This document shows positions 14,250 through 43,700 of a stretch of 64,000 nucleotides of DNA, piece by piece. Source of the DNA: Psammoneis japonica (Eukaryota); contig QPGO01000017.1 in the NCBI GenBank assembly GCA_008632985.1, forward strand, positions 372,001 to 436,000. Direction: 5' to 3'. The first letter of the stretch is position 1; every line of letters starts with the position of its first letter. The notes under the pieces are model-generated. The model had not been told where the DNA came from. It did not search any database and was given only the letters and a program-made list of their open reading frames with translations. The position numbers and the translations under genes were made by a program.

Positions 14250-15230
14250 GCATTGGCACAAAATTGCAAAGGTCCCAAAATGGCAGAGGGTGGCAAATGG
14301 GAAAGGGCACAAAGTCACAAAGGGCACAAAAAACAGCTGAGGGTGAAAAATTGCAAAGGAGGGTGCAAAATGGCCCAGGGCACAAAATGATGGAAAAGGG
14401 AGCAAAATCACAAAGGGCGCCAAATGGCCGAGGGGAGGCCACAAAATCTGTGCAAAATGGCCAAGGTGCAAAATGGGCAAGTGCAGCCACAGAAGCATGC
14501 ATTGGAAAATGCAGCTTCTGGCAAGAGACCTGTGACAGGCTGCATGAGTTCCACACAACTGAGGCTGGCGTGACTGGCCATTGCCAGAGTGATTCACTTT
14601 GCATGGAGGGTCTGCACAAGATGTGTGCAGCACCAAGTGTGGTTGATTCTGCACAAGGACTCAAGCCCTGCATGTCTTGCTGTTGCAAAATGGTCTCACA
14701 ATTTCACACACAACAGAAAATCTCAGCATTTTGTGTTTGAGCACTTGGACCCCATTTTTGCACAGGGCACAAGGTTGACAAATCAAGAAGGGCACAAATT
14801 TGTGAAGGGCACAATGTGTCCAAGGGCACAGAATCACAAAGATTGCAAAATGGTGCACAAAGTTGCAAAAGATGCCAAATGTCAGCTGAGGGTTCAAAAT
14901 CATGAAGGGCACAAAATGGCCAAGGGTGCAAAATCATGAAGGGCACATTGTGGTGCCTGAGGGTGCAAAATCATGAAGGGCACAAAATGGCAAAGGGTGC
15001 AAAATCATGAAAGGCACAAAAGGGCTGAGGGAATGAAATGGAAAAGGTTGCAAAATCAAGAATGGTGCAAAATGGTTGAGGCAGCAAAATTGCAAAGGGC
15101 ACAAAATGGCCAATTGTTCAAAATGGGAAAGGGCACAAAATCACAAAGGGTGCAAAATGGCGGCTGAGGGTGCAAAATCACAAGGGGCCTAAAATGGCCA
15201 AGGGCACAAAATTTCAAAGGGTGCAAAGCT
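14250..15230 (+). repeat. Degenerate ~33-bp minisatellite (GGGCACAAAATGGCCAAGGGTGCAAAATCATGAA-like), interrupted at about 14480-14760
   Basis: Recurring gggcacaaaat / gggtgcaaaat blocks visible directly. Confidence 0.75.
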
Positions 15231-15445
15231 GGCAACAAGTTTGGCAAGTCTGGCAATTTTGGCAAGTTTTTGAGTTTGTCAAGTTTGTTGAGTTTGGCGA
15301 GTTCAGCAAGTTTGGCAAGCATGCTCCTGAGTTTGTCAAGTTTGTCAAGTTTGGTGAGTTTGGTGATCAAGTTTGTCAAGTTTGCAAGTTTGGCAAGTTT
15401 GGCAAGTTTGGTGATTTTAGCAAGTTGGTCGAGTTTGTCAAGTTC

Positions 15446-16010
15446 AGGCATGCTCCAGTCCCAGGTGATGCACAAGACAACAATCAATTTTGAGTGTAAA
15501 TTGTGCATCTCTTGTGCATGGAGCATTTGAGCATAAATTGCTGAAGCCAGTGTGCTTTTGTGGATGTCAAGAGCATGAACATTTAGTTGGCTTTTTGGTT
15601 GGTGTGAAAGTCCTCATGGGACATGCATCACAAACTCCCTCACCAGCAGACTCAACACGACTGATTGCACATCAACACATTGCATGCAGAGATGATTTGT
15701 CTGCAGGCAGAACCCATGCCAGCAAGCATCACAGAAAAATTGTTTGTGTTGACATCAAAATGACAGCAACAATTTTGCTGAAAATCGTCCATTGAGTTGC
15801 GGCTCGATTGTTGCAACGAAACACATGGATTTCAAAAAAACAATGATGTTGCAACACTGACACGAGTCTTGTCAATGTTGCAAAACATTCAAATTTGGGC
15901 TGGTCCACACTTTTGGTGGAGAAAGCTGGGGCGCGCAAGTCAGAGACCATGCAAAAATTGCAAACTTTGTTTTTGTGCACAGTTTGGTTCATGCGCGGTT
16001 GGAACACGTC
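15446..16010 (+). mobile_element. MITE-like unit, copy 1, within the satellite
   Basis: Aligns with 16224-16759. Ends are degenerate inverted repeats (ggcatgctcca ... tggaacacgtc). Confidence 0.6.
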
Positions 16011-16223
16011 TTTGGCAAGTTTAGCGAGTTTGGCGAGTTTGGAAATTTTGTCAAGTTTGGCAAGTTTGTCAAGTTTGGTGAGTTTGTCAAGTTTGGTGAG
16101 TTTGGCGAGTTTGGCAAGTTTGGTGATTTTGATGATTTTGGCAAGTTTGGAGAGTTTGTTGAGTTTGGTGAGTCTGTCATGTTTGGCAAGTTTGCCCCTG
16201 AGTTTGGCGAGTTTGTCAAGTTT

Positions 16224-16759
16224 GGGTGTGTTCCATCCCCAGGTGATGCACAAAATGACAATCAATTTTGAGTGCAAATTGTGCATCTCTCGTGCATGGG
16301 GAGTGTTTGTGTGTAAAGTGCTTGAGCGGATGTGCTTTTGTGGATGTCCAGAGTGTGCACATTCAATTGGTTTTTTTGTTGGTGTGCAAGTCCTCATGGG
16401 ATGTGTGTCACAAACTTCCTCAGCAGACTCAGCACTGATTGTGCAACAGTGCAATGCATGCAAAGATTCATCTGCATGCAGAGCTCATGCCAGACAGCAT
16501 TGCGTGAAAATTGTTTGTGTTGACATCAAAACAACAGCAACAATTTTGCCGAAAATCACCCGCCGTGTTGCGATTCATTGTTTGTTGCAACAAAAAGATG
16601 GGCTGCACAAAAACAATGACATCGCAGCACTGACATTCAAATTTGTGTGAATCTGTGCTTTTGGTGGAGAAAGCCAGGTTGCAAGTCAGAGACAGTGCAA
16701 AAATTGTGCAAATGTCATTTTTGTGCACCACTTGGTTCGCGTGCGGTTGGAACATGTCT
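16224..16759 (+). mobile_element. MITE-like unit, copy 2
   Basis: Direct repeat of 15446-16010; ends ggtgtgttcca ... tggaacatgtc. Confidence 0.6.
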
Positions 16760-17845
16760 TTGGCAAGTTCGGTGAGTTTGGCAAGTTTGGTGAGTTTGGC
16801 AAGCATGGAGAGTTTGTCAAGTTTGTCAAGTTTGGCAATTTTGGCAAGTTTGTCAAGTTTGTCGAGTTTGGCAAGTTTGTTGAGTTTGTCATGTTTTGGC
16901 AAGTTTGGTGAGTTTGTTGAGTTTGGCAAGTTTGGCAAGTGTGACAAGTTTGTTGAGTTTGGCAAGATTGTTGAATTTGCAAGTTTGTCAAGTCAGGAGA
17001 GTTTGTTGAGCTTGGCAAGCTTGGCAAGTTTGTGAAGTTTGGCAAGTTTGTTGAGTTTGGCATGTTTGTCAAGTTTGGCAAATTTGGCAAGTTTGGTGAG
17101 TTTTGCAAGTTTGGCAAGTTTGTGGAGTTTGGCAAGTTTGTTGGGTTTGTTGAGCTTGGCAAGTTTGTTGAGTTTGGCAAGTTTGTCAAGCTTGGCGAGT
17201 TTGGCAAGTTTGTTGAGTTTGGCAAGTTTGGCAAGTTTGGCAAGTTTGTTGAGTTTGTCATGTTTTGGCAAGTCAGGCGAGTTTGTCAAGTTTGGCAAGT
17301 TTGTCAAGTGTGGCAAGTTTGTTGAGTTTGGCAAGATTGTTGAATTTGCAAGTTTGTCAAGTCAGGAGAGTTTGTTGAGCTTGGAGAGCTTGGCAAGTTT
17401 GTGAAGTTTGGCAAGTTTGTCGAGTTTGGCATGTTTGTCAAGTTTGGTGAATTTGGCAAGTTTGGTGAGTTTTGCAAGTTTGGCAAGTTTGTGGAGTTTG
17501 GCAAGTTTGTTGGGTTTGCTGAGCTTGGCAAGTTTGTCAAAAATGGCAAGTTTGTCAAGCTTGGGGAGTTTGGCAAGTTTGATGAGTTTGGCAAGTTTGG
17601 CAAGTTCAGCAAGTTTGTTGAGTTTGGCGACTTTGGCAAGTTTGGCGAGTTTGGCAAGTTTGTCAATTTTGGCGAGTTTGGCAAGTTTGTTGAGTTTGGC
17701 AAGTTTGGAGAGTTTGTTGTGTTTGGTGATTTTGTCAAGTTTGTTGAGTTTGGTGATTTTGGCAAGCTTGTTGAGTTTGTCAAGTTTGGCAAGTTTGTTG
17801 AGTTTGGCAAGTTTGGAGATTTGGAGAGTTTGGTGATTTTGTCAA

Positions 17846-18186
17846 GTGGACAATTTTTGGCAAAGTCATTGCCGTCATTTGAGTGTCAACACAAGCTGTT
17901 TTTTTGCAATGCTGTCTGGCATGTGGTTTGCCTCTGCAGACAAATCTCTGCATGCAATGCACTGTTGTGCAACCAGCATTGAGTCCGCTGAGGAAGTTTG
18001 TGGCACATGTCCTGTGAGGACTTGCATGCTGACAACAAGGCCATTTGAATGTTCGTGCTCCAAACACCCACAAAAGCACATCCTCTGAAGCACTTCACAT
18101 GCAAACACTTCACACACAAGAGATGCACAATTTGCGCTCAAAGTTGATTGTCATTTTGTGATTCACCTGTGGGGTCGGAACACGTC
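17846..18186 (-). mobile_element. MITE-like unit, copy 3 (inverted, truncated)
   Basis: Reverse complement of the left ~340 bp of copies 1 and 2; ends in ggaacacgtc. Confidence 0.6.
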
Positions 18187-21100
18187 TGCAGTGAGTTTGG
18201 CAAGTTTGGCAAGTTTGCTCCAGAGTTTGTTGAGTTTGTCAAGTTTGGCAAGTGATTTTGGTGAGTTTGGCAAGTTTGGCAACTTTGGCAACTTTGGCAA
18301 CTTTGGCAACTTTTTCAAGTTTGGCAAGTTTGGCAAGTTTGGCGAGTTTGTCAAGTTTGTTGAGTTTGGCAAGTTTGGCAAGTTTGGCAAGTTTGGTGAT
18401 TTTGGCAAGTTTGGCAAGTTTGGTGATTTTGGTGATTTTGGCGAGTTTGGCAAGTTTGGCGAGTTTGCCGAGTTTGGTGAGTTTGCCGAGTTTGGCAAGT
18501 TTTTCAAGTTTGGCAAGTTTGGCGAGTTTGGCAAGTTTGGCGAGTTTGGCAAGTTTGTCAAGTTTGTCGAGTTTGGCAAATTTGGCGAGTTTGGCATGTT
18601 TGGCAAGTTTGGAGAGTTTGGCAAGTTTGGCGATTTTTGCGAGTTTGGCAAGTTTGGCAAGTTTGGTGTTTTTGGTGAGTTTGGCGAGTTTGGCAAGTTT
18701 GGCAAGTTTTTCAAGTTTGGCAAGTTTGGCAAGTTTGGCGAGTTTGGCAAATTTTGCGAGTTTGGCAAATTTGGTGATTTTGGTGAGTTTGGGGAGTTTG
18801 GCAAGTTTGGCAAGTTTGGCGGTTTTGGCAAGTTTGGCAAGTTTGGCAAGTTTGGTGATTTTGGCGAGTTTGGCAAGTTTGGTGATTTTGGTGATTTTGG
18901 CAAGTTTGGCAAGTTTGGTGATTTTTGCGAGTTTGGCGAGTTTGCCGAATTTGGCAAGTTTGGCGAGTTTGGCAAGTTTGGCAAGTTTTTCAAGTTTGGC
19001 AAGTTTGGTGAGTTTGGCAAGTTTGGCAAATTTTTCAAGTTTGGCAAGTTTGGCGAGTTTGGCAAGTTTGTCGAGTTTGGCAAATTTGTCAAGTTTGGCA
19101 TGTTTGGCAAGTTTGGCAAGTTTGGTGTTTTTGGCAAGTTTGGCGAGTTTGGCAAGTTTGGCAAGTTCAGCGAGTTTGGTGATTTTGGTGAGTTTGGCAA
19201 GTTTGGCAAGTTTGGCAAGTTTGGCGAGTTTGCCGAATTTGGCAAGTTTGGCGAGTTTGCCGAATTTGGCAAGTTTGGCAAGTTTTTCAAGTTTGGCAAG
19301 TTTGGAGAGTTTGTCAAGTTTGTTGAGTTTGGCAAGTTCGGCGAACAAGTTTTCAAGTTTGGCAAGTTTGGCGAGTTTGGCAAGTTTGGCGAGTTTGGCA
19401 AGTTTGGCAAGTTTGGTGATTTTGGCGAGTTTGGCAAGTTTGGCAAGTTTGGCGAGTTTGGTGACTTTGGCAAGTTTGGCGAGTTTGCCGAGTTTGGTGA
19501 GTTTGCCGAGTTTGGCAAGTTTTTCAAGTTTGTCGAGTTTGGCAAGTTTGGCAAATTTTTCAAGTTTGGCAAGTTTGGCGAGTTTGGCAAGTTTGTCGAG
19601 TTTGGCAAATTTTTCGAGTTTGGCATGTTTGTCGAGTTTGGCAAGTTTGGCAAGTTTGGCGAGTTTGGTGATTTTGGCAAGTTTGGCGAGTTTGCCAAGT
19701 TTGGTGAGTTTGCTGAGTTTGGCAAGTTTTTCAAGTTTGGCAAGTTTGGCGAGTTTGGCAAGTTTGGCAAGTTTGGCAAGTTTGGTGAGTTTGGCAAGTT
19801 TGGCAAGTTTGGTGAGTTTGGTGAGTTTGGCAAGTTTGTTGAGTTTGGCAAATTTGGCGAGTTTGGCATGTTTGGCAAGTTTGGCAAGTTTGGTGTTTTT
19901 GGCGAGTTTGGCAAGTTTGGCGAGTTCAGCAAGTTTGGTGAGTTTGGCGAGTTTGGCAAGTTTGGCGAGTTTGCCAAATTTGGCAAGTTTGGCAAGTTTT
20001 TCAAGTTTGGCGAGTTTGTCGAGTTTGTCAAGTTTGTCGAGTTTGGCGAGCTTGGCAAGTTTGGCAGTTTTGGCAAGTTTGGCAAGTTTGGTGATTTTGG
20101 CGAGTTTGGCAACTTTGGCGAGTTTGCCGAGTTTGGCAAGTTTGGCAAGTTTTGCAAGTTTTTCAAGTTTGGCAAGTTTGGTGAGTTTGTCAAGTTTGTT
20201 GAGTTTGTCAAGTTTGGCGAGTTTGGCAAGTTTGGCAAGTTTGGTGATTTTGGCGAGTTTGGGGAGTTTGGCAAGTTTGGCAAATTGGCGAGTTTGGCAA
20301 GTTTGGCAAGTTTTTCAAGTTTGGCAATTTGGCGAGTTTGGCAAGTTTGTTGAGTTTGTCAAGTTTGGAGAGATTGTTGAGTTTAGCAAGTTTGTCAAGT
20401 TTGGCAATTTTGGCAAGTTTGGCAAGTTTGTCAAGTTTGGTGAGTTTGTTGAGTTTGGCAATTTGGGCAATTTTGGCAAGTTTGTCAAGCTTGGTGAGTT
20501 TGTTGAGTTTGGCAAGTTTGGCGAGTCTGCAAGTTTGTCAAGTTTGTTGAGTTTGGTTGGCAAGTTTGGCAAGTTTGCTCCTGAGTTTGTCAACTTTGTT
20601 GAGTTTGGCAAGTTTGTCAAGTTTGGAGAGTTTGTGGAGTTTGGCAAGTTTGGCAAGTTTGTTGACCGAGTTTGGCAAGTTTGGCAAGTTTGTTGACTGA
20701 GTTTGGCAATTTTGGTGAGTTTGTCGATTTTGGCAAGTTTGGCAAGTTTGGCAAGTTTGGTTGGTTTTGCAAGTTTGGAGAGTTTGGCAAGTTTGTCAAT
20801 CAAGTTTGGCAAGTTTGGCAATTTTGTCGAGTTTGTCAAGTTTGGCAAATTTGGCAAGTTTGGTGAGTTTGGCAAGTTTGGTGAGTCACAGACCCAAACA
20901 CTTCTGCCGTCATTGCTTGCAACTCTGGCTTGCCCAGGTGCCACCAAATGTGCGCAGCTCTTTTGCCCAGCACTTTTTGGCACAAGGTGGCTGACTTTGG
21001 AATTGCCAGGTTCTCTTGGAGCTGTGCTGCAGACACACCAAGTCCATCCTGTGGCGCGAGCAGTGAACAACATGGCTGCAAAGCTGTGTCAAAGCACCAG

Positions 21101-24399: not shown

Positions 24400-25360
24400 G
24401 GCTGCAATTGTTGCACTGGTTGGTGCCATCATGGTGTCCTTTCAGCATGGAGTTGGGGTGTTCAAGTCTCCTTGTCACATGATTCATGCATGGATGAAGT
24501 GACACGGGGCCACAGCTGTGCCAGGGTTGCCTTGAAACTCTCTGCCACAGCTCTCAAAGTGTCACCCAGGGTCCACCAAAGACCCCCAATGTGCTTCAGC
24601 TGCAGTTGTTGGGTTGGTTGGCACCACTGTCATGCTGTTGTTTCACTGCAAAGTTGGAGCTGGCTTCAAGGAGCCTCATCATGCTTTTGGGAAAAAGTGA
24701 CTGGGGGCACAAACATGCAAGGATGGCCTTGCAACCTTCCACCACAGTTTTTAAACCATTGTTTGGGGCATGCCAAAGACCCCCAATGCTCTCAGGCTGC
24801 AGCTTTTGGGTTGGTTGGTCCCATCATCTTTTAACTGTGTGAAGCTGGGGTGCTCAAGTCTTGCCCTTTGTGGGTTGGCAAAGTGACTGGAGGTCAAATT
24901 GCACAAGGCCAAGGCCAGGGCAGGGTGGCCTTGCAACACTCAGCCACAGTTCTCAAAGCACCACCTGCAGCCCTTCTTCATTGACCTCTGGTGCCCACAA
25001 GCTGTGGCTCTTGGGTTGGCCAGCCTCATCATGGTGTCCTTCTTTTGCTGTGCAAAGCCAGCTGGGGCAGCGTTGAAGTCTTGCCATTCTTGTGAGGACA
25101 AAGTGTTGTGGTGAGGCCTCAGCTGCACCAGATGGATCTTTCAATGCTCAACCATGGCTCTCAAAGTGCTCCCTTGTGCTCTCTTCCAAAGGGAACTTGT
25201 TGGGAAAGTGTGCTCTCTTGCTGGCGTGGACAAGGCAACACAGGGTGTGCCACAACTTCACCAGGTTGGCCTTGCACTGTTCAGCCATGGCTCTCAAATT
25301 GTTGCCTTCTCTTGTGTCTGCCAAAGATTCTCAGTGCTGCCTCCTGGGCTGGCCCTGTGT
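24400..25360 (+). repeat. Degenerate ~200-bp tandem repeat
   Basis: Recurring ggccttgcaac..ccacag..ctcaaag..ccaaagacccccaatg..gggttggttgg blocks near 24520, 24720, 24920 and 25260. Confidence 0.6.
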
Positions 25361-25809
25361 GAGTTGCACATGAACAGCTTTGTGGCCACACCAAGACAGC
25401 CAGCTTGTTCCTGGACACCACCTGCTTGAGACTCGTTCCAGCCCCAGATGGGAGCTTGCAATGCTGACATGTGACACAATTGTTTTTTGTTGTCCGATGC
25501 ATGTTTTGAGCACACATTTCTGCATGTGATCTTCCAAAAAATTGTTCCAGACTTGCTGTTCTGCAAAACCCCAGATGTTTTGTTTGACAAAATTGTGGGA
25601 GCCTCATTTTCTGTTGGCAATCATTGATGCATTCATCACCTCACAATTTTGCCACGGAGCTGGCACGCAAAATTCCATGGCTGGGCCCAGTGTCACACAG
25701 ATTTCCACCTGTGTCTGGAACACGTCTTGACCACCTCCTCCACAACTGCCTTCACAGCCTGAGGCAGCCTCCTTCCAATGAGCTCCAGCCATGACAAGAG
25801 TGCAAAAGC

Positions 25810-25811
<2 letters not shown>

Positions 25812-25853
<42 letters not shown>

Positions 25854-25866
25854 GGGGGGGGGGGGG
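25812..25866 (+). repeat. (TG)n microsatellite followed by a poly-G run
   Basis: Directly visible; about 40 bp upstream of the Ngaro left end. Confidence 0.95.
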
Positions 25867-27389
25867 TGCACATTGGCTGCAAAAACTGGCTGCAAAAGCA
25901 GTCTTTTTGTTGGTCCTTGGAGTCAGAGCAGTGAGTGCATGTGGCAGGCAAAATTCAGACGGAAGGATGACCAGATGGATTTGTTGATTTTTTGGCTGCA
26001 CACATGACAATTGGCAAATTTGGCTTCGCACGCTGATGGTGAACAGTCATTTCATCATTTCTCAATGACTTTGGAAGTCATTGACAATGCTGTGACAATT
26101 GTTGTCAGGCATCGCAAGCTCTGTTGAGTTGTTTTGGTCTTTCAAATCTTTCAAAGACAACAACTCATGCACCATGTTGCTGGAAAACAGCTGGAAGAAC
26201 TTCTTCTTGAGCTGACTGCAAGCAACAATGCACGCTGCATGTTGGGCTCTCTGCAAAAGATTTCACACAAGCCTCCTGCAGAATCAAGTCATTGAGCACA
26301 TCTCAAAGGAGGCACAGTTTTCCTTGATGCATGTCAAGCAACAGGGAACCCCATTTTGCTCCATGGCCATGCTGTCATTGGAGGCACAAGACTCCAACTG
26401 GGAATGTTCCATGTGATGTCAGTTGGAATGGGCTCACGTGCATGCCCTGCACAAGTGGACCCAGACAATTTCTTCAAGATGATGGAGCTTGACACCCCAA
26501 CCTGGAACAACATGTCAAGAACCTGGAATCAGCCAATGAAGCAGACAAGATTGCCCCTCCGACTTGATTGGAGTCAGCCGCCAAAGCCACTTTCCATCCA
26601 ATTGCCCCTCTCCCTCCATTCACAGTGAGCCAATTCACAGATGAAGATGACTGGCCCACATCCATCCTGCCAATTGCCACCCTGTCAGCTGTCAATGTCT
26701 GCAATCAAGCTTGTGACAGTGACAAAAACTGTCCCAGCACCACCAAGGACCTTTGTTGGCTTGCCGCTTTCCTTTGGGCCATTGCCCACGACAAGATCCC
26801 AGCCTTCACCCAAAGTGCTGTCACCAATGCTGCAGCTCTGCAATGCTTCAAAGAACTTCACATGTCTTCCATTGCATCAAATGACATTGCAACAAACCCC
26901 CCAGGTGTCACCTCTGATGCAATGCTGCAAGGTGTTGCCTCAAGCATCGCTGAGCTCACAACACACCTGCAATCCAAACGATCATCTGGAGAACAAGACA
27001 AACAACTTTGAGAAGTTGGCAGCCCACTCCTGACAAATGATTCCATTGGAATTGTCTTAAGATGGCAACACTGCACCTGCCAGCCTGTCCAACCTTGCGT
27101 CCTCATTCTTCAAACAACCAACATCTGCTGCAGCCAGAAACTGGGCACAACACACCCTCAAGAACAAACTTGGATGCCTCGTGGTCACCAAGCAAGGAAT
27201 TGCCACAGCAACACCAGCTAGAGAATTCCTTTGGGACAGAGATGACCTCCCAAACAACTTCAGCACCTTCTTTGCAGCACACCCACCAACAACTCCCCAA
27301 GCAGCAATGACGACAAGACAGCATCAGCCTCTGTGATGCGTTGTCTTCACCTGCAAGTCAAAGAAGGAAAAGGGTTGTCAGACAAAGAC

Positions 27390-29885
27390 TTACGGACTAG
27401 CAATGTTGGGACAATCTAACGGATGTCTAGGACAGATGATAATCGTGCACTAGATGAGAAAGAAAGTGAGCAAAGGAGAGATCATCGGATCTCTCCATGC
27501 AGTCTATGCTAGTCTGTCCGACACAAGGGAGTGTACTCCCCATCTCGGATGTCTGTCACCCTCCCCTGATGAGCAATGCAATGCTCAACAAGAAAGAAAG
27601 AGACGATCCGAATAAAAAAAGAGGACCAGAATAGCAGAACAAAGAAGAGCACCAAAAGAAATGGCCAAGACTTGGTCCGTAAACACGATAACAATCAACG
27701 ACAACATCCCATCAAGGGACGAGCATGTCGGGAATAAACATCCATCCCGCGCTCAACGCATCGGTCTTCGACAAAAAATATCAAAGGTAGTTCCCAATAA
27801 ATCTTTTGGATAAATTGAGTCGTGCACCAGAGAAGAATTTTGTCAATCCATAAATAATCGACCGCAACGAGACATTCTGGCGAGCCATCCTGTCGCCAAA
27901 AATCATCGGAAGAGATGGGGCCAAAAATTGGAAATCCACCATGGACAGTGATACGTTGAAAATGAAGCAATAGCATCCCACCTGATAAACCAATACTTCT
28001 ACCACACTTTGTGTCACCCTTGAAAAACATATTGGAGAAACAAAATACATCATAAAGTCGCTCAACGTCGGAAGAACAGTGACGTATCAGAGGTGAGCAT
28101 CGCACGTCGTTCAAAAAGTGATCGTCAAGTAAGGTATCTTGGCCGAAGATTGAGTTCTCAATGGCCTGATATGTTTCCTCTGCGCTATAGGAATCCCTCC
28201 CCTGATCAAAAAATGTAGGATCATCATCGGCAATGGTGGATAGGTCCGGAGTACCGTGAAAAGTACAAATAGACGCGACAACGGTCCTGACAACAGAGGA
28301 AAGAGATGAAATAGCGAGAGGTAACGAGACTCGGTGGCCCTCTTTCAGGGTTACCCCGCTTTCATTGGTCTTGATGGGATAAGAGAAGGAATGGCAGCAT
28401 CGTATATCCGAAATTAACGACGGCCGAACCAAAAATCCGAATTCGAATCAACTTGACAACCAACGAAGCACTGGCGGCGTCCATGAGTAACAGACGACGG
28501 CGGCGCACAGGTGGTAAGCAACTCGGGTGTAACCTTGATAATAGAGGATAGTCCATAACTGGGGTGAATATGGCCATCTTTACATGGAACAATAGAATGG
28601 CCAGAAACAAAAAACTTCGGGGTCTCGAGTAGGCAGGAGCGGACTTCGGCAGGAAGTACCACCGATTCGGTAGGAATTGCAAGGGATCCCGCATCAATGT
28701 CTGTAGATTGCTTACCCGTAGATTCCATAACAGACACAGTAGACTTGATAGTCAAGGAATTAGCATCCATAGGATCCATCCGAGCATCCATAGCGAGTGC
28801 ATCTTCAACACGAGATACAACAGCAGTGTTGTAGCTACTGGCAGCAGAGGCGGGATCTGGGCACAACTTGGACTCAGCACATGCATGAGAACTTGAAATG
28901 CTCTCCAATCCATTAGTCATGGCTTGCCCACACTCGTTTGGACCAGGTGAATGAGTTGCTAAGGCCTCAGCAAAGTCTTCAGGAGTGGGACCTGCAGTGG
29001 CAACCGGCGGGGATGCAGAACTTGAAGTGGACGGTGGGACTGGATGCGGATCATCTGAAATGTCATCCCAGCAATCGCAATGCTGGAAACCAGGACAGAA
29101 ATGGAAACGTAAAGTGCCAACACACACCTTTGTGGTGCTGTCATTCTCTGTGATCGCTTTGACCATTGCGTTCTGAAGAGCACTGAGGTTCAGACGAACC
29201 GGGGAGCCTTGAGGGGTGGCCACAAAGAGAGGGGCCTTTTCAATGATCGGTCCGATTCGTGTGAGATCTTCAGTCAGGGCAGCTTCAGGGATGACAAGAT
29301 TCTGAATGATCTCGCGATGGAGAACAGTGACAGCATCGCACTTGAGGCCTTGAGGAGCAAATCCATCCAAAAGATCTTCAGGAGCAGGGATCGCGTCCGA
29401 ACAAAGGGTGTTCAGGAAAACATGGGCATCGGGTGAGCGATTGTGTGGGCTGAATTCAACCCGCATTGTCTTGATCTTGGTCAAATCGACGGCGTTTTGA
29501 TTTTTGTTCACCATGGTTGCGCAGGAAAAAAATCAAATTCCTGTGCAGAGCTCTGGTGTGTGTTCCACGGTGGTCGTTTGATCACAAATCGAGAGGTGAA
29601 AAAATGGCTGTGACAATGATGACGATTTCAACGAAGAAAAGGTCGCCAAATCACACAACAGGCGCTGCAGTGGAGGAGCACAGAGGAAGAGGAACAGCGC
29701 ACTGCTGCTCACAACCTTGCAGACTGGCAGCATCAGGACAACCCAACGGACATCTAGGACAGATGATGATCGTGTGCTAGATGAGAAAGAAAGTGAGCAA
29801 AGGAGAGATCATCGGATCTCTCCATGCTGTCTGTGCTAGTCTGTCCGACACAAGGGAGTGTGCTCCCCATCTCGGATGTCTGTCA
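27390..29885 (-). mobile_element. Non-autonomous Copia-like LTR retrotransposon (2.5 kb)
   Basis: 169-bp LTRs at 27390-27558 and 29717-29885; 5-bp TSD AAGAC (27385-27389, 29886-29890); PPT AGGGGAGGG (minus strand, 27559-27567). PBS GGTTGTGAGC follows the 5' LTR and is one TA->TG change from the copia/Ty5-type half-tRNAiMet PBS GGTTATGAGC. No RT or integrase motifs recognised. Confidence 0.88.
28414..29514 (-). pseudogene. Internal ORF of the LTR element (probable truncated gag-like region)
   Basis: 366-aa ORF starting about 200 bp after the PBS on the element's sense strand. Identity inferred from position only. Confidence 0.5.
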
Positions 29886-31399
29886 AAGACATCAAGAAGA
29901 TCACAGAGCAAGAGCTAAAATCACCTGCCACAGCCGATGCTCCATTCTTCCAAATCCAAAACTTCATGAGCCCACATGCCACTGTCATGGGTAAAAACTC
30001 CCCAGCAGCCCAAAACCTTGTGTCACCAGGATTTGCCACATCAAGAAACACTGCAACTCACATGACAACCAAGGGGCCAAAGACCCAAATGTGCTCAACT
30101 CCAGTTGCAAGACTGCACCAATGCAACACTCTGCAGTGATGTGGATGACTCGCTCATCTCTTTTGCCAACTTCCAGCAAGAGACAGTCCCAGCCAGAACA
30201 CTTCACTTGATCCACCCCAGTCTTCTTAGCCACAAACTCCAATGATGACAAGCCAGGAACCAAATGCAAAAAGGCAAAGACAAAGCCAACCAAGACAAAC
30301 TGGTTTGCAATGACAACTTGCTTCCCATTTGGAAACTCAAACAAGGCAAAGACTGTGTGGCAAAGTCTTCCACCCAAACATCAAGACCCTCCCTTTGTTC
30401 AAAGGTGTCCAACTCTGTGGCAAATGCCACGCAAAAGATTGCTGCGCCACCATCTGCTGCAAGTGCAGCCACTCTGAACTCCGTGGAAAAGCCATTGAAG
30501 ATGTGACCAAGTGGGTCTCCTTTTGCCGTGAATGCTCTCCCTCTGCCAAAGATGATGACCAAAAACAGGACGCATGGTCATTGCTTGGCAGTGGCGACCC
30601 ATCCAATGGCAAATGCTTTTGTCCACCACCCAAGCCTCCTCATGACACACCAATGCCAAGCAACACATGCATGCAAGCCAGGCTGTCAAACAAGAAAACA
30701 AGAAATGCCCGACAGAGACAAGAGGATCAAGTTCCATCCTGCACTTCCCCACCCATGTCAGATTGCAAGGATCAAGTTCCCTCCTGACCAATGACCTCCA
30801 CCTGCTCACAACAGACAACAACCCCTTCAGCCCCAGACACAATGCTGTGAACCACCCAACAAGAAAGCCTGGACAGCACAGAGAAACGAGCATTTGAGCA
30901 ATGAGAGATGATTCAGGACATGCTCAGCAAGCATCACACTGACCTGATGGGAGCCATTGAGCAACAGGATCAAGACCCTCAAGACCCAACAGCAACAATC
31001 CCAAGCACTCCAAGAGATGGACACATCCTCCATTGTTTCACAACAAACAAACCTGAGCCACCCAAATCCAACAGTCTCCCTCCTGGGATCACCTGGCGGA
31101 GCCCGCCAAAATGCCTTTGGGCTCAGCAGATCCCAAGGTCCTTGAATCCAAACAGCACTCTCCTTGGAAGTGTCTGATGGAACCTGCTGAACAGTCATCT
31201 TCCCAGGCTGACCCAGCAGCTCCCTCTCAGGCACCAAAATCCAAAAGTTCTTCCTCCAAGGTCAACCCAACAGAGCCTCACATGGAGTTGCATCTCAGCA
31301 CCAACTCATGCACCACCTTGACTGCTCCAGCTCCTCAGCCAAGTTGCTCAAAAGCTCTGTCCAACAAAGCCCTGCTCCAGCTGACAAGCCACATCACTT

Positions 31400-33450
31400 C
31401 ACAATCTCCTCAACTGCCATCAAAACTGATCTTCTCTTTTGAGCTTGCAAAAGAAGCAGCCAAGCAAAACTGGATGATCGTTTCTCAACGTTTCAACCTC
31501 AATCTTGAGAGAGCACTTCAAGCACAATGAACATCCATCCCAGGCTGCGGCTCAGAATTCCGTTTGATTGATGTGCTGCAACCCCTCCTGCATTGTCATC
31601 CATCATGGGACAAAGTTGAACAAACATTGTCCCATGGAGCTGGGCATCCTCTTGAACCAACAGAGGAGACAGCAGCATGCCAAGACAACATGTGAGAAGA
31701 GGTCAATCAAGGGAATCACAAGTCAGCAGTGCGACATGCATCAATCTTGAGAGAGAAACTCCATGACAAAGTTTGCAAAGGCAGGGAACTGCCTTTGCCC
31801 AAAGACAAGATCTGCCATCTTCCCAAAGCCCTGGCGGCCCCACTCAAAGTTGCAGAACAAGACACAATCAATGAACAAGGGGAAGCAGTCCCTTCCAAAT
31901 GTGCCACTCATGAACAATCTTGCAGATTCCATTCAGGGACTTCAGTGAATTCTAGAGTCATCTCAGAAGAACTCACACACTCCCTGTGTGCACAGAAACA
32001 TGCTTTGCTGCCTGATCCATTGCATTGTTTCAATTCAGCTGCGTCACCACAAACCCGAGTTCCAATCCAGAAGATTGATTGTGAGTCAGCCTGCTGTCGT
32101 GGCCACTCAAACAGCAACACCGCAGTTCAGTCGATTGTCACTTGTGATGATCCAGCCCTTCTGGCCCTCTGTTTCACCTTTGGAGGCAAGCCAAACCCAA
32201 ACTTGTGGGGCAACATTTCTGAATCTGTTTGCAACCCGTGTCCAACAACATCCTCCAATGCAAGTCCTGGGACCCATCCACTTTATGAAACCCAGCTCAA
32301 GACCACCTCCCCCTTCCTCACTGCAAAAACAACAATGCGCCATTTGCCCCAGCTCTTGAACTCACAGTTGAGATTCCCCCAACAACAATGGCATCATTGA
32401 TGTCTGCATGGATGACACAGTCACAGTCACACCCAACCTGAATGACAATGTCAAACAAGGAGAAGCGGCAGTGCTGTCAGGGATTCATCCTGTTGGCTGA
32501 CCGGTTCACCCCAAAGAAGACCTCACACAAGACAATCTCACCTGTTTGAAGAAACTCTGTGCCAAAGGATGACTTGAAGAATGGCAGCACTTGGTTGGTT
32601 GGTTGGACACCTGTTGCATGAGCGTCTGTTTGCCAGAACATAAATTTGTTGCTTGGTCCAACCAACTCCGATCCCTCATCAAGAAAGAAGGGTGAGCTTT
32701 CAAAGAAATTGAGCAACTTGTTGGTAGACTCAACCATCTGGGCTGCATCGTGCCACATGCTTGCCATGTTCTAAGTCACCTTTGTCAACTTATGATGCAC
32801 TCCAAAAACAGGAGATGGTGTGAGTTACGACCATCAGAGATCAAAGATGCAAGACTCTGGACAAGATTTCTCAAACAAGCTTGAAATGGTGTCAGCCCAA
32901 ACCTCATCACTTGCCACAAGCCAACACACATCTGTTGATCCAATGCATCAGAACATGGCATTGGTGGCTGCAACATTGCAGCTGGACAGGCTTTCTGATT
33001 TGAACTCCCACAACACCTGGCACATGGTCTTGCAATCAATGCGAAGGAGTTCTTGTCCAGTGTCACATGTCCTTTGATTGATTCCATCAAAGGCAACCTG
33101 CCACCGCTCTCATGTGTCCTCTTCCAAGGTGACAGTGCCACAGCCTCCAGCTGGCTGCAGAAATCCAACTTCAATGAAGAAACTGATCCAGAGCAAATGG
33201 AGATTGCACCCGTCAATTTGCGTTCATCATGCTTGACACTGAGAGTCAATCCTTCAGCCAATGGTTCCCTGGAAAGAAGAACATCATCAGTGATTGCTTG
33301 TCTTGAGACAGAAACTCATCCAATGACACACTCACCCATTTGCTTTGCCACAGTGCACCCAAGCAGGTTTCTCAAAGCTTTCACATCTTGCCACTGCCCA
33401 ACAAAATCATTTCTTGGTTGACCTCCTTGATGCCAAAGACACTTGTCAAC
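31400..33450 (+). pseudogene. Ngaro reverse transcriptase / RNase H remnant
   Basis: AEQDTINEQGE..THEQS, KIDCESACCRGH (K-x-D-x-x-x-AYRR), TFGGKPNP, DVCMDD (YxDD; 32405-32416), INAKEFL, GDSATASSWLQKSNF, QWFPGKKNIISDCLS. Multiple stops and frameshifts. Confidence 0.88.
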
Positions 33451-34520
33451 AAGCAAATGCCAAAGAAACCAACAAGAAGCAAAACACAGTTTTCACCTGC
33501 TGGGAGAAGTTTCTTGGCAAGATTGGACTCAGCGACAACCTGTTCATGGATGAACTCACCATCACCCAACCACACTGCACCCTTGGAGCCTTTGCAGCAG
33601 CCATCAAGAGGGATGTTTCTCAGCAGAACAATTTGACACATGGGTGGCAGGGACCATTGGAGCTGCTGTGGACAATGTGGCATTGACCTTTGGGTCTTGC
33701 AACAGGAAGGACCCAAGGTTGGATGAGGATTGATGGACCTTGCACCTTTTGCTCTGCCAGTGTTGAGGCTGCAAAAACCACAATGGACAACAGAAGCAAC
33801 AGAAAGCAATCACCACCTCACTCCTCTGTGCTTTGTCCCAAAATCAAAAGATGTGCAAAGATGTCACCACAAGCCAACTGACCATCAGAGCTTGGTTCTT
33901 TGCCATGTGCTCTTGCGAGTGCTCCAAGACCAAAGGTGACTGACACAAACCAAACTGCCAACCCTCAAGAATCTCCACTTGACTTCTTCCAAGACAGTGC
34001 CAAACTGCAGCACAAAGACCCAGACTTTGCCTTGGCTGACACCATCTCCATCACCTTCGAATGCCAAAAGAATGACAAGTGATGTGACACCATCACAATG
34101 TTTTGCACCGGGGACAACCTGCTCTGTCCAGTCCATGCATGGGCAGCAGCAGCCCATCATGCACTGTTCCACCCAGGCTCTGTCTCAGACTCCCCAGCAT
34201 GCACCATTGGCAAAAACAGAAAACTGCACTCTCTCTCCTCTTTAATCATCCTGAGATGCAAGCAGCAGCAGTGGCAGCAACAGCAATCGGTGAGAGGACA
34301 AGTTGGGGTGCAAAGCTCATGAAATCAGAACACACTCTGTTTGCTTGGGAGCAGCTGTGGCAATGCATTTTGTGTGCACACCTGTCCACTTGATCATGTT
34401 GATTGGCAGATGGTCTTCAGACGCCTTTCCCCAACACATCCAAGAACAAGTTCAACAATTTGGTGTCAACGTCTCTTCACAAGTGATCAAGCACCAACAC
34501 TTCTTTGCAGTTCCAGACTC
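33450..34520 (+). pseudogene. Ngaro tyrosine recombinase remnant
   Basis: FFAMCSCECS (FFAMRSCEY), ITFECQKND, LCPVHAWA, THSVCLGAAVAM (HSxR), IMLIGRWSSDAFPQHIQEQV (catalytic Tyr position now CAC, 34435-34437). Confidence 0.9.
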
Positions 34521-35243
34521 TGGCCCAGAAGATCCCAGAATCCACAATCATTGTGAACTCCAAGCCACTTGCGCAAACAATGGTCGACGTCAAGCTCAGT
34601 TGATGGCACAACTGCCATTGTTTTGCTCTCTTCACTTGAGTGTCACAGAGCTCAGCAACCAGATTGAAATTTTGCAGGCGAGTCATGATGGCACATCAAC
34701 TGCAGCACTGTTGGGTCCCTGGGGGGTTGTTCACTTCAGGAATGAAAATTTCCTGGGCCAAACCATCAGGCTTTGTTGCCAGACCATTCATGCTCAAGAT
34801 TGGAGTCTGCAACCTGTGGTGAGGACTTGGTTTGATGGGTCATCATTTGTTGGTCCTTGGAGTCAGAGCAGCAGTGAGTGCGTGTGGCATGCAAAATTTG
34901 GATGGAAGGATGACCAGATGAATTCATTGATTCTTTTGGCTGCACACACGACATTTGGTGAATTCAACTTCACGTGTCAATGGTCAACAGTCATTTTTCA
35001 ACAGCTTTGGAAGTTGTTGGCAATGCTGGGATGATCGCCATTGTGTGTCACAAGCTTTGTCAAGTTGTCTTGGTTTTTAAAATTCCCCAAACCCACCACC
35101 CTTCATGAGCTGTGGCACTGCCAGGTCCCTGGGGGATTGTTCACATTGGGAATGAAAATTTCCCAGGCCAAACTGTCAGGTTTTAATGTCAGACTGTTCA
35201 CACTCAAGATTGGAGTCCGCAGCCTGTGGCAAGGACTTGGCTC

Positions 35244-37030
35244 AAACAAACTGCATGGACCAGCACAAGTGTGAAAATTTTGTTCTCAATGACAGCACAT
35301 TTGCATCAAATTGTGGTCAACTTTGACCTGACAAAAGACTCATTTGGGTCAACTCAAATCATTCAAAAATTCACAAGCAGATGTGATCAAATTTTTTCAA
35401 AATGGCCACTTACAAAATGGTGCAGACAATGATCACCCAGGCCAACTGGCTTGGCTGCAAAGCAAGAAAAGATCTTTGCCACCACACAAAATGACACAAA
35501 TTGCAGGATGTGTCCAAGCACAACACAAACAATGACAAAGTTGCAGGAAAACACCATCAACGGCCCGGGAATCCAGACACACCAACAAAGAAAAACTGTG
35601 GGAAAGGTGAGAGATCAGAAGTGCCACGCAGGAGCAGGCTGCTTGGCTTGGACCAAACCACAACAAACCAGTGCACTTGCACTGCAACTTTCTGTCTTGA
35701 AACTCAGACACACATTGACAAAAGCAGCCAAGGATGATTGCAGCTGCTGAGACAATGCTGCAAACATGCAAGTCAAAACAAAAGTGTTGTGTGGAAGTGA
35801 GCTCCTTCCAGCAAACCACAACAAGCTGATGCTTGCACTGCAGCAACTTTCTTTCTGGAAACTGAGCAAGACAAAGTGAAAGAAGCAGGGCCAAGGAAAA
35901 AACATTGTGCCAAGCTCAGCACTTGCCAAACAACACAGTGCCAGCTTGCCATTTCTTTGCTCTCTGCCAACCAGAATTGCTGCCCCCACTGACAAGACAA
36001 GCACAATGACAAAGGACCAGTGGACATTGGCTTCAAGAAACAGAGAGACTGTGGGCAACAAAATGACAAACAAGAAAAGACAGCATGTGACAAACACTGC
36101 ACAATGGAAAGCAACATCATTGGAGCTGACAACAGAACAATTGTTGTCAGATCACACACAACAAGCAGCGACCATCAACAAGAATGACTTGGATGTGCAG
36201 AACCAAGGCCAAACATCTCAATGAATGAGCACTCATGGGCACTTGTCAAGAGCCAATGTCACTTGACAAGAGCAATTTGATGAAGGCAGCCAGACTCTGG
36301 AGCTGCTGTTTCTTGCTTTGCGCAAGGGAGTGGCTGTTGATGGTGTTTCATTTGCTGTTGTTGCAACACAATGAAGTGCAAGAATCAGCTGCAGAACCAA
36401 GCATTTTTGGCATCCTTTCCTGCTTTGCACAAGGGAACAATTTTGTCAAAAAGCCTTCATCAACTTGACAAGAACACTGGGTGGATCACATTTTTCCAAA
36501 ACCCCAACACAAAACTTGTGCCTGTTTTGTTGGTTGTGTTGTCATTGCATGTTCTTGTCCTTTCTGTCATTTGCAGTGCACTTTTTTGCCATTTTTTTTT
36601 CACTTGTTCAACATCAGCCACGCATGCTGCCACACAGAGCCAGCCAGCAATTTGATGAGAGAGCACAAGTCAGCCCCAACACAACTTGCAGAAGCAACAA
36701 CAATGTCCACTGCTGCCAGCCACTGTCCCCAGCAAGAATGTCACTGTGGTGTGCCTTGCTTTTCACTGGAAAGAGTGCAGCTCTTTTGCCAGCTTCGCAG
36801 TTGCTCCACAGACATGTTTTCCTGTGCTGCACTTGTGCTGCAAAATGCAAGGTTCTTGACCTCCATTGATGTTCACCCTCCATTTGAAGAGGATCATCCA
36901 GGGACTGTCTTCCCCCCTGTCCCCAATTGGCCAAACAAAAACGTGAAGGGGGTCATGATGTGTTTTGCGTGTGTCGGGGTGTCTCCACACATCCTTGCTT
37001 TTTGCCCACATGCAGCCGTCTGCCAGTCAG
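35244..37030. repeat. Unclassified TpA-depleted repeat relic
   Basis: Same composition as the adjacent element; no recognised domain. Normal composition resumes at about 37035. Confidence 0.6.
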
Positions 37031-40426: not shown

Positions 40427-40739
40427 TGTCGTTGCTTTCAAGAAGGATTATTGCATAGAAAGAAGCTGCGGTGTACTGTAGCGTCCTGTCCGAAAGCGAT
40501 GTTTTAAGTGTGCACAGCAGATGAAAGACAGCAGACAGCAGGTGGATGGGTGGTTGAAATTCCGATGTGCAGAATTTTCGAAATAAATCGCAAACCAAAA
40601 CGCCACGACACGTCACATCAATTACCGTAGCCTAGGCACCTACGGTAGCGATTGACTGGCGTCATTCAGTCACTCGTTGATTTCCACGAGTTCCCTTCCC
40701 ACGACCGACCCAGCAATGTCTACCGGTGCCGGTACGACT

Positions 40740-43700
40740 GACATCAAACCGCGCGAAACAGCATTGGACAGTGTTGTTCCATGCGGCGCGCTTGCGCTTG
40801 CCATTGATTTTTCTTGATTGCACCACAGGAGAGCCAGAGTTGCCATGTCAGTCAATTTGGTGAGCTTGAGCTGACAAAAGCCTTTCAGGACCAGGCATTC
40901 TTGATGGTCAATGGCTCTCTTGCTGAGTGGCTTTTTTGTTGCTTTTGCTGCCTGAACGAAGCCCTGCCCCCACCCCAGCTGGGAAGTCTGCAAGTGGCAC
41001 TGAAGAGGGAAAGAGAAGACCTCCCATGGGTCGCAACACATCACTTGTTCGGTGCCAAGACAGTGGGCCCAGCACAAGGAGAGGACACCTTGTGGGTGGC
41101 TGTGCTCTCAGTGGAATCACCACGCAACGCGACAGCAGCGCACAGCATGAGGCAGACAGACGAAGGACGATGATGAGAGGCTGCCCCAGTTCCCCCCATT
41201 GTGTTTGACAGACTGCTGGTGATGATGGGATTGGTTGCATCAACCCAACATGGCCCAACGGTGCTGAAACATTGCTCATGCCGAGTGGCATGCCTCGTGC
41301 AATTGCCCACAATGTGCATTGTGCCAGTTGGTGCAGCGGGCTGGCTTGATCATCTTGATGTCAGCGCCTGTGACACCACAATTAATCAGCCATCATCTTG
41401 GGTCTTGAGAGATTCCACAAGCCAAGCTGATTGCTCATAATGCCTGTGCCACTCTTGCTGCTTCTGACTTGTTTCATCAGAGTGCGAAAAATGCAGTTCG
41501 GCGATTTGTTTTGGCAGGCTGGGAACATTTCCTGCCACCACAAATGCACCCTCTTTGATCACACTGGATCCAGATGGCCTCCACATGCCAGTTGATTGGA
41601 GCCACAGTGAGATCAACCTTGTTTCTCTGATCTAAACATCAGAATGCAAGCCCACTGTCAAAACAGCCTGACACTGTTCAGGTCCATCTCCCTGCAACTG
41701 TCAGGTTGCTCTGCAAATTGGCCTCTGCATCGCATCTCTCTCTTTCTTCTCATCCGCCATTTTGCAGGCATCAGATCTCACATCTGTTCAACATGTGTTC
41801 ATGAAGAAAATTCATTGTGACCATTGCAACAGTTTCACATGAAACATTTTCACGCCACATTGTGCTCCAAACATGCTCTGTCTTCAGATGTTTAAGAGAG
41901 GACATTTCTCCTCACAACCATCTTGACGAAATGCCACACACAAACTCTGATGTCACTTTGTGTGCATCTTCAAACATGTCTCTCAGATCCAGGAGTTTCT
42001 ACAAATGTTTGATCCCTGATGCAGCTGGCAGTTCATCCACACATTCTGTGGTCCCCTGCGGGAAAAATCGCAACCACAACTTTCTGAGATTTCAAATCTC
42101 TCAGGACAGAACCATGTTTTGCCTCCATTTTCTTTCTGTTCATCAAAATTTTGAACTGCTCTGCACAGCTCTCAGTCTTGCAAAGCCTTGATCACATGAC
42201 TCTGATCATGTGAGGCCATTTCCTCAGACTTGCTCTAACTTTCTGGCACAATTTCTGTGGCATTTTATGCCGAATCTCTCATCGCAAACCTCATGAATTT
42301 CTCTCCCACAAAACTGCAGTTTTGCCTTTTTGTTCACCTGCCTTTCAAGCCTTCTCTCTGTCTCCCATCCTGCCATGGCTGCCAATGTGCTTGCCACTGT
42401 CAAGCATGGCAAAGCCTCCCCCCATCAAGCGTCACTCCAATTTTGGTCCATTGAGCTTTGGGAGCCTGAGATTCAAAGAGGACTCCAGCTGCACTCGGAT
42501 TCTCCAGGCCATGTCATGATAAATTCATTGGAATTTGTTGTTTCCATTCTCATCCTGGCTGGTGTTGTCACCTTCATGGAGTCCATTGATGAACCACCAG
42601 ACCCAGATTTGGTCATGGCTCTCTTCTCCCATGTCACCACCCCAGAGAACTTGTTTGTCAGGATGCAGAGCAACAACATTGTCAGCATTGTTGGCTGGCA
42701 AAACAGACACACTGCAAACTCTCTCCAAGGCCAGCAGCTTCTGCAAATTTGGCATGCATTGTGCACTTCTTGTGTTTGCCTTGGTCTCTGTGCTGGAGGC
42801 ATTCACTGGTCTGGCAACCAAGTGCAGCTGGCGGACAACACATCTCAACTGTTTGACCCTCACCTGCTTCATTCTGTCTGTGTTGCTCAGCATTGCAAGC
42901 ATCCTTTTCTGAGGACTTGGACCTTTTTCCAGCCAAGTCAAGAGCTGCTGCAACTGCTCTACTCTCATCTGTTCTCAGAGTTGCAGCCAGTCCCTGCAGA
43001 GACAACACAATGCTCAGGACAGCTCTCACACAAGATGCACCCACTGTTTCAAATTCACCAAGGACATCAAATGGGGCGCAGAGGGATGACCCAGAGATTC
43101 TCATGGAAAATCTTCTGGAGTGCCATTGCCAACTGCAACTTGCCATGTGTGCTGCTGTGCATGTTGCAACAGAAAGCAACTCCATTTTCTGCAAACAACT
43201 GAAAGCTGACTCTGTGTTTGGCCACACAAAAGATGTCGCTTCATTTGTCAAGTTGTTTGGCCATGGCCATGACTGTCATGATCACCCAACAGACACCAAG
43301 TGGGGCAAGTTGTTCCAAGACATCAAACATCAAGAAGGAACTCAAGTGATGTGACAAAGCTCTGAAGCATCATGAAGGACACAGTGGCAAGATGCTCCAG
43401 GAATCCAAGGCACATGTGGATGCAGCCCATGCTGAGGACCCTGACAGGCTTCTCTTTTCTGTTGCTGATTGGCATCAAGTGTGCCCATTTTGTGGTGCCC
43501 ATCTCCAAGAGTGGGTGCAGACACAGGGAAAATCCAACCCAGCTGGTCTCAATGTCAAAGGTGGCACTCATGCCTGGTGCCTCAACGATGTCTTGAGTTG
43601 AGACAACAAACTGTCAGCATCTCACTGGTGCTGACATTTTGTCAGCTCCAGTCTCCTCTGTCACCAAGATGTGGGTCCAATGGTGCACACAGAAGATTGG

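Follow-up and report, generated by a model that had tools for sequence, protein, structure and literature searches.

We analyzed a stretch of 64,000 nucleotides (hereafter called the window; positions 372,001 to 436,000, forward strand, of contig QPGO01000017.1 in the Psammoneis japonica assembly GCA_008632985.1) which carries, at 27390-29885, an element bounded by long terminal repeats (LTRs) and lying within a block of old repeats. Positions below are those of the window. The left part of this element has a gene-like number of TA dinucleotides (TpA), and the right part is almost devoid of them and still holds many CG dinucleotides (CpG), with a sharp border between the two parts. The features of the element, including its open reading frames (ORFs) and the target-site duplication that frames it, are as follows.

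27385-27389, no strand: left copy of the target-site duplication AAGAC, read directly from the sequence
27390-29885, sense on the minus strand: the whole LTR element, 2,496 bp
27390-28836, no strand: TA-bearing part without TA erasure, 1,447 bp, from dinucleotide counts
27390-27558, minus strand: 3' LTR in the sense of the element (left LTR of the window), 169 bp, with 9 TA and 6 CG
27559-27567, minus strand: candidate polypurine tract AGGGGAGGG, abutting the 3' LTR, read from the sequence
27695-28432, minus strand: ORF2, 245 amino acids, TTG start
28414-29514, minus strand: ORF1, 366 amino acids, ATG start, crossing the border of the TA-bearing and TA-erased parts
28837-28913, no strand: border zone between the TA-bearing and TA-erased parts, less than 80 bp, from TA positions and 100-bp bins
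28837-29885, no strand: TA-erased, CpG-retaining tract, 1,049 bp, from dinucleotide counts
29515-29716, minus strand: leader between the 5' LTR and the start of ORF1, 0 TA
29717-29885, minus strand: 5' LTR in the sense of the element (right LTR of the window), 169 bp, with 3 TA (all CTAG) and 5 CG
29886-29890, no strand: right copy of the target-site duplication AAGAC, read directly from the sequence

Because the purine run AGGGGAGGG, a candidate polypurine tract, and the only long frames (ORF1 and ORF2) all lie on the minus strand, the sense of the element is the minus strand of the window. Its internal region is 2.16 kb long, and the TA-erased tract covers the 5' LTR, the leader and roughly 220 codons at the start of ORF1. 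No recognisable tRNA-complementary sequence that could serve as a primer-binding site was seen next to the 5' LTR on inspection by eye. Against Pfam, ORF1 and ORF2 matched no family at E up to 1, gag and pol (reverse transcriptase, integrase) included, and neither had a homolog in two very large protein libraries. No RNA family matched across 26500-30900. LTRs, a target-site duplication and a dispersed multi-copy family were all found; with no gag or pol match and so short an internal region, the element is at most a non-autonomous LTR retrotransposon. ORF2 may be open merely because TAA and TAG are rare on its strand, and it is doubtful as a real gene. On the sense strand of 27560-28836, TAA and TAG are rare in all three frames, and several overlapping minus-strand ORFs are open there.

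In one sequencing run, 1,494 contigs align to the element, with loose ends that carry other flanks. The summed depth was 900-6,500 inside the element and 11,000-18,000 on the LTRs, compared with about 55 for single-copy pieces, and the family counts tens to hundreds of copies in this run. Two other sequencing runs contained almost nothing of the element. Within the window, the only repeats of element sequence are its own two LTRs, and the host flanks occur just once. A metagenome scan with a word from the LTR gave no match, and a scan with ORF1 gave 35 pattern matches, of which none was confirmed. The family is abundant and apparently either non-coding or orphan-coding.

An earlier note on this DNA had described 29112-29754 as having no TA and roughly 25-30 CG, and 27560-28860 as rich in both. 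Both descriptions hold: the 643 bp of 29112-29754 contain no TA, where base composition predicts 39, but do contain 29 CG (observed/expected ratio, o/e, 0.72), and 27560-28860 contains 62 TA (o/e 0.70) and 67 CG (o/e 0.98). The gap between the TA at 29110 and that at 29755 is 645 bp. If TA were as dense there as in the left part, the Poisson probability of finding none in 643 bp would be 5e-14; with the TA density of the genes in the window, it would be 4e-11. The depleted tract turned out to be wider than described. From 28837 to 29885 there are 6 TA (o/e 0.10) and 41 CG (o/e 0.61), with TG raised to o/e 1.49 and CA to 1.53, whereas 27390-28836 has 70 TA (o/e 0.70), 72 CG (o/e 0.95), and TG and CA both at o/e 1.10. 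The border falls in the interval that the TA at 28836 and 28914 enclose, and 8 TA lie in the 100 bp before it (28737-28836). The TA that survive in the tract are those in TTAG at 28914, CTAA at 28960, GTAA at 29110, and CTAG at 29755, 29778 and 29837. Thus, 5 of the 6 stand between a pyrimidine (Y) and a purine (R), as Y-TA-R, a context in which erasure is slow; among the TA of the left part this holds for 7 of 71 (Fisher p 2e-4). Because TG and CA are at o/e of about 1.5 and 5/6 surviving TA are Y-TA-R, the TA-free kilobase is a signature of mutational erasure and not a compositional quirk.

The host repeat around the element had been said to have lost both dinucleotides, and indeed TA and CG are at o/e 0.01 and 0.16 in 25000-27389 and at 0.03 and 0.17 in 29886-32500. 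TA loss is clearly far ahead of CpG decay in rate, and both losses occur in the same place. The proposal of the earlier note that TA loss is the faster of the two and separable from CpG decay therefore stands for rate (o/e 0.10 for TA compared with 0.61 for CG), but not for place, since CG is also reduced in the tract (0.61 vs. 0.95 in the left part).

Similar repeats make up about half of the window. In the blocks at 12.2-37.0, 40.8-48.2 and 57.4-63.6 kb, TA is at o/e 0-0.15 and CG mostly at 0.05-0.4, whereas the genes between the blocks have TA at 0.5-0.7 and CG at about 1, with block borders lying within 200 bp. The GC content of the repeats is unchanged at about 0.49. Relative to 23.5 kb of genes, the 28.1 kb of old repeats that we examined show a combined loss of TA and CG (84.3/kb) that matches the gain of CA or TG (85.7/kb). 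The four-base contexts of the gained dinucleotides follow a flank rule. If T changes to C after a purine, which is A to G in 5'-TAY-3' on the other strand, gains of 32.0 in the RCAR/YTGY class and of 13.6 in the RTGR/YCAY class are predicted, and the opposite rule predicts the reverse; the observed gains were 33.6 and 13.4, respectively. TA survival in the old repeats, as a fraction of the gene level, was 0.94 for TTAA, 0.19 for CTAA/TTAG, at most 0.08 for all others, and at most 0.01 for RTAY. TA that is preceded by T or followed by A on both strands seems immune to erasure. TTAA is undepleted in all repeat blocks (12.3-16.4, 21.5-27.4, 29.9-36.9, 41-48 and 57.9-62 kb). Within the window, the TpA changes are transitions to TpG or CpA that are confined to the repeats and spare the neighboring genes.

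The edges of the erased blocks have features of their own. The 1.4 kb of 62200-63600, at the edge of an erased block beside normal DNA, holds 12 TA (o/e 0.15) and 76 CG (o/e 0.82), with TG and CA at 1.39 and 1.44, and an orphan ORF (62690-63439, minus strand) lies inside it. Shorter margins with TA gone and CpG kept are found at the block edges 57.4-58.4 kb and 41.0-41.4 kb. Sharp TA borders between erased blocks and genes (at most 200 bp) lie at 36800-37000, 40600-40800 and 57200-57400, and at some block edges the recovery of CpG precedes that of TA by 0.4-1.8 kb.

Two tandem arrays also lie in the repeats. The satellite at 16759-20881 (4.1 kb) consists of about 450 copies of the 9-bp unit TTTGGCAAG with a 72% match; it is GT-rich on the plus strand, and its CpG come from unit variants. 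It was dropped as evidence for erasure, as the unit TTTGGCAAG natively lacks TA. A tandem pair (58160-59116 and 59116-60051, about 950 bp each, 90.5% alike) lies within an erased block, and its 61 mismatches include 14 between CG and TG/CA, 5 between TA and TG/CA, and 7 TG/CA doubles. An estimate of first-order kinetics from the old repeats was also dropped, the residual TA there being probably at the mutation floor.

We then turned to the LTR pair, because the two LTRs of one copy are identical at insertion. They now share 151/169 positions (89.3%), and the 18 differences are 17 transitions and 1 transversion, of which 12 lie within the first 45 bp (the U5 end, in the left LTR) and 3 fall outside TA- and CG-type sites. 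Since the LTRs were identical at insertion and now differ, some erasure postdates insertion. Where the left LTR has 9 TA, the right LTR keeps 3 (all CTAG) and has TG at 5 and CA at 1, so that the earlier count of five TA to TG changes among six in the right LTR was correct. At three further sites one LTR has TG and its partner CA; each of these lies in the R__Y context, which is the class that is erased fastest and in which the change can strike on either strand. Both LTRs have therefore been altered since insertion, and in the right one erasure is nearly complete. The right LTR carries TG at 27440/29767-8, where CA makes up 95-99% of the depth of the sister copies, and because TG is so rare among the sisters, the erased state of the right LTR was not copied from the common type. 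The loss in tracts that the earlier note had described is borne out by the border of less than 80 bp, but not as conversion of the internal kilobase in this copy, as proof of change since insertion comes from the LTR pair alone. The element can be called young, as that note had it, only loosely: the LTR identity is 89.3%, and 3/18 differences lie outside TA- and CG-type sites.

The excess of TA to TG changes in the right LTR had been taken as a hint of tracts made on a single strand. Applied to the six LTR changes, the flank rule predicts 3 correctly, is neutral for 2 and is contradicted by 1; the flanks therefore explain most of the six, and the three sites with TG and CA in opposite LTRs also speak against single-strand tracts. 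These data suggest that the choice between TA to TG and TA to CA is set mostly by the flanking base and that the single-strand hint is weak. A comparison of composition between the two parts had pointed to an excess of TG on the plus strand, but it proved unreliable as a strand test, since the parts differ natively: ATA, for example, occurs at 26.6/kb in the left part, and neither ACA nor ATG accounts for it in the right part. The TG/CA skew ranges from -0.38 to +0.44 along the old repeats, compared with -0.11 to +0.24 in genes.

Sister copies of the element were compared with ours at 40 of the 671 differences, listed under a ranking rule that is not stated, and all sister figures in this text cover those. 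At 16 TA sites of our left part, 76-100% of the sister depth is CA or TG. In the RTAR/YTAY class, all 12 sister sites go in the direction of the flank rule, and in the R-TA-Y class all 3 informative sites go towards an A followed by C. By this comparison of sequences, most sister copies appear to lack TA at many of our TA sites.

The polarity of change in the host repeat is fixed by a decayed ORF at 34294-35031 (plus strand), 4.4 kb from the element. Its 12 homologs all lack a recorded Pfam domain, and the ORF itself did not match Pfam even at E up to 10. The alignment contains H-S-x-R ... G-R-W-S-S-D-A-F-L-R-Y, which resembles the C-terminal motif of recombinases. Across 47 aligned codons, three conserved Tyr have become His (TAY to CAY), and Ile and Met have become Val after T. 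Taking the homologs as outgroup, the Tyr to His and T|A to T|G changes set the direction as TA loss. At CpG sites, Arg has become Cys once and Gln twice, and Ser has become Leu. One of the three Tyr to His residues is the presumed catalytic Tyr. The host had been assigned to the Ngaro group, an assignment that we could not sustain: none of the 109 repeat-block ORFs of at least 80 amino acids matched Pfam, with no reverse transcriptase, RNase H or split direct repeats continuous with the insertion site found (heavy decay could hide them), and the only tyrosine-recombinase-like ORF is the one 4.4 kb away.

The genes between the repeats are those of a diatom-type genome. The γ-tubulin gene (55539-57011) is 75-85% identical to its best matches, and the named entries among its top 120 matches are diatoms (Chaetoceros, Cyclotella, Cylindrotheca, Nitzschia and Seminavis among them) or Parmales, except for one camel entry. 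The genes of the window are almost intron-free, with carboxylesterase, lipase, MatE, TLC, WD40 and γ-tubulin genes each present as a single ORF. The acyl-CoA dehydrogenase gene (10316-11691, minus strand) consists of two ORFs with about 80 nucleotides between consecutive profile positions, a gap that is probably a short intron.

We propose the following explanation. The element is one copy of its family, inserted into an old repeat that has been scrubbed completely, in a diatom-type genome whose silenced or repeated DNA undergoes two transition processes, both ending in TG/CA. The fast one is specific for TpA; by the bookkeeping above it changes A to G in 5'-T-A-Y-3' (on the other strand, T to C after a purine) and spares TTAA. 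The slower one is CpG decay. In the right 1.05 kb of the element the fast process is almost complete and the slow one slight, with the left 1.45 kb untouched and the border between them sharp. The likeliest reading is that the targeted state of the flanking old repeat reached into the new insert and converted the tract as a margin of that state; similar margins with TA gone and CpG kept lie at other block edges. The chemistry would be adenine deamination in DNA by an ADAT2/TadA-like enzyme, which we suggest because the tRNA target U-A-C has the same flanks as T-A-Y, and CpG would be lost through deamination of 5-methylcytosine in methylated repeats. The data show the signature, the flank rule, the polarity in the host element, the changes in the LTRs since insertion and the abundance of the family; the change of the internal kilobase in this particular copy, the targeting of a tract and the enzyme are all inferred, and we put the chance that the tract was converted in place after insertion at about even.

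Several observations weigh against conversion in place. The internal tract may have been free of TA already at insertion, or have been pasted in later, so that only the LTR changes would have arisen in place; three routes would lead there, namely a half-converted master copy, recombination of erased with non-erased sequence, and gene conversion from an erased sister. We consider this rather unlikely, but it draws on the sister copies in several ways. Among the differences listed, a single one in the internal tract is TA-related, at 29566, where the sisters have TA and our copy has CA, and it is the only listed site across 28.8-29.7 kb at which a sister TA is seen; this site is T-A-C in 29/29 contigs, which is odd if most sisters were erased. 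The majority thus keeps TA at 29566, and it keeps CpG at 28089, 29729 and 29735 (86-97% of depth), which suggests that most sisters are not old, decayed copies, and yet they appear TA-poor in the tract. TA sites make up 14/25 of the listed sister differences in the internal left part compared with 1/6 in the internal tract, with non-TA differences being similar in the two (about 0.8% and 0.6%). No CpG of the internal tract that the sister majority keeps was lost here among the differences listed; on the tract side such sites are only 29729 and 29735, both in the LTR, so that CpG loss in place is demonstrated for the LTR alone. A junction of two histories would also fit the sharp border and the differing base composition of the two parts, which goes beyond what TA changes explain and because of which a comparison of the parts gives no direction of change. 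The tract also extends very unevenly, over 1.05 kb on one side but only about 50 bp on the opposite side. However, a half-erased ancestor requires the same tract-wise erasure one step earlier, and the right LTR that adjoins the tract did change after insertion, to a TG (29767-8) held by at most 5% of the sister depth. Recombination between two insertions is excluded by the intact AAGAC on both sides, and the TA-poor state of the sisters is itself drawn from the 40 of 671 differences.

The context of the TA in the left part raises a different objection to conversion in place. On the plus strand of 27560-28836 there are 39 RTAR, 15 RTAY, 5-6 YTAY and 2 YTAR. R-TA makes up 0.87 of the TA (54/61), above the maximum of 0.78 among 67 gene windows, the share of Y-TA-R is 0.03, below the minimum of 0.07 in the same windows, and on the sense strand TAR accounts for 7/61, compared with 0.34 in 12 genes (p 1e-4). 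This odd context fits a gain of TA at R-C-A, and thus a reversed polarity, in which the family would be natively TA-poor and the left 1.45 kb, together with a minor sub-family, would have gained TA by C to T changes at R-C-A (G to A at T-G-Y). Such changes would resemble those of fungal repeat-induced point mutation (RIP), which converts C to T at CpA and raises TpA, or cytosine deamination in retroelement cDNA. Y-TA-R occurs in the left part at 1.6-2.3/kb, as in fully erased repeats (1.9/kb), compared with 6.3/kb in genes, and if the sister majority serves as outgroup, simple parsimony has the left-part TA as derived. The open frames are no counterargument, since T-G-Y to T-A-Y never makes a stop codon, and a polarity test based on stop codons (P about 0.009 against TA gain) was discarded as invalid for this reason. 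RID-related DNMT4 genes, whose function is unknown, are reported to be widespread in diatoms (PMC9998398). We nevertheless hold reversed polarity to be improbable, as it needs a second, unseen process that mirrors an independently derived erasure rule. No other gain of TA is seen in the window, where the old repeats stay at o/e 0.01-0.03, and the left part is gene-like in all four dinucleotides whereas the right part looks erased. Moreover, C to T changes alone cannot produce the three double LTR sites with TG and CA, and the R-C-A rule fits only 3/6 LTR sites. The density of TA peaks at the internal border and drops towards the polypurine tract, opposite to the gradient of cDNA exposure that is known from retrovirus work. 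If the listed differences are ranked by share, more than 24% of the sister depth has TA at 47/61 of the internal TA sites, and these TA would then not stem from a private burst.

An artefact of assembly or polishing, in which erased and non-erased copies were joined or the consensus was drawn to the common type, seems to us highly improbable. There are tens to hundreds of copies at high depth (about 55 for single-copy pieces) that could be confused, only 0.64 of the sampled words of the element are present in the contigs of the run, and no listed contig covers the whole element. The right part, however, differs from the common type: at 29767-8 it carries TG against 95-99% CA in the sister depth, at 29837 it carries T against 92% C, and at 29077 and 29315 it retains CpG that are absent from 88-100% of the sister depth. 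The same 5-bp duplication is found at both ends, the two flanks are alike in composition and skew, and ORF1 reads through the border.

Full-text literature searches found no report of TpA-specific hypermutation in diatoms or other groups, and a process of this kind is known to us from one 2026 preprint on the chlorarachniophyte Bigelowiella natans. In mutation-accumulation lines of B. natans, 230/231 new mutations in two integrated viral regions were A to G or T to C, all at TpA, with a rate of about 6e-7 per site per generation and with mutations in some lines only, and an ADAT2-like adenine deaminase was proposed (Mettrop et al., bioRxiv 10.64898/2026.01.13.699255). The two systems are alike in that TpA changes almost only to TpG or CpA, in the confinement to foreign or repeated regions, in the push towards GC, and in long-term TA depletion with a gain of CA and TG. 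They differ in the host, which is a diatom-type stramenopile here, in extent, with repeats forming about half of the window at TA o/e 0.01-0.03, compared with a Rho of 0.45 in the nucleocytoplasmic large DNA virus (NCLDV) insert there, and in the coupling of TA loss with CpG loss here. In a search of the preprint for the terms, CpG, flanking context, tracts and strand coordination did not come up, and 'cluster' is used solely for TpA-depleted windows of the genome.

Other known systems share fewer features. Fungal RIP is likewise a repeat-directed, transition-only, context-specific defence with sharp borders, in which young copies are partly mutated, and it is described as C to T change at CpA with raised TpA (PMC2621366). 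Here, in contrast, TpA is removed and GC rises, and RIP of the fungal type was rejected as a candidate, with the repeats at TA o/e 0.01-0.03 and their GC unchanged at about 0.49. CpG decay of methylated transposons gives CG to TG/CA changes in the same blocks, and diatom transposons are reported to be CpG-methylated (PMC9998398), but such decay spares TA and is slower here, as CG in the tract is at o/e 0.61-0.72 while TA is at 0-0.10. Editing by ADAR or APOBEC also produces clustered transitions in a retroelement, and ADAR prefers a 5' U (bioRxiv 10.64898/2026.01.13.699255, Discussion). Editing before insertion, however, gives identical LTRs and changes on one strand, whereas here the LTRs differ, both directions occur, and the DNA of margins outside retroelements is affected too. 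The natural target of TadA and of ADAT2-ADAT3 is A34 in U33-A34-C35. Its U-A-C flank matches the inferred T-A-Y, with the difference that these are known as RNA enzymes; DNA activity of amphioxus and trypanosome ADAT2 is cited in the same preprint (bioRxiv 10.64898/2026.01.13.699255).

Taken together, the wider result is a TpA process in a diatom-type genome that follows a T-A-Y rule and spares TTAA, of the kind known from that preprint. To the preprint the window adds the flank rule, which points to an ADAT/TadA-like enzyme, and the finding that TA loss is located together with CpG decay, is faster and forms sharp-edged tracts. We tentatively suggest, as a possibility somewhat short of probable, that diatoms have a chromatin- or RNA-guided defence by adenine deamination in DNA that is specific for T-A-Y, spares TTAA and runs ahead of the decay caused by cytosine methylation. 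The same footprint, far deeper in a diatom-type genome, would mean a widespread defence and not a curiosity. If this is true, the defence of diatoms would act on sharp-edged domains and extend from old repeats by up to 1-2 kb into adjacent or new DNA, and the element would have caught a moving front. The process would then also be common to stramenopiles and rhizarians, and it might even be an ancestral trait of much of the eukaryotes. The half-converted element is in any case a natural time-point, and together with it the other copies of its family could give the order of events, the length of tracts and the rule of targeting.

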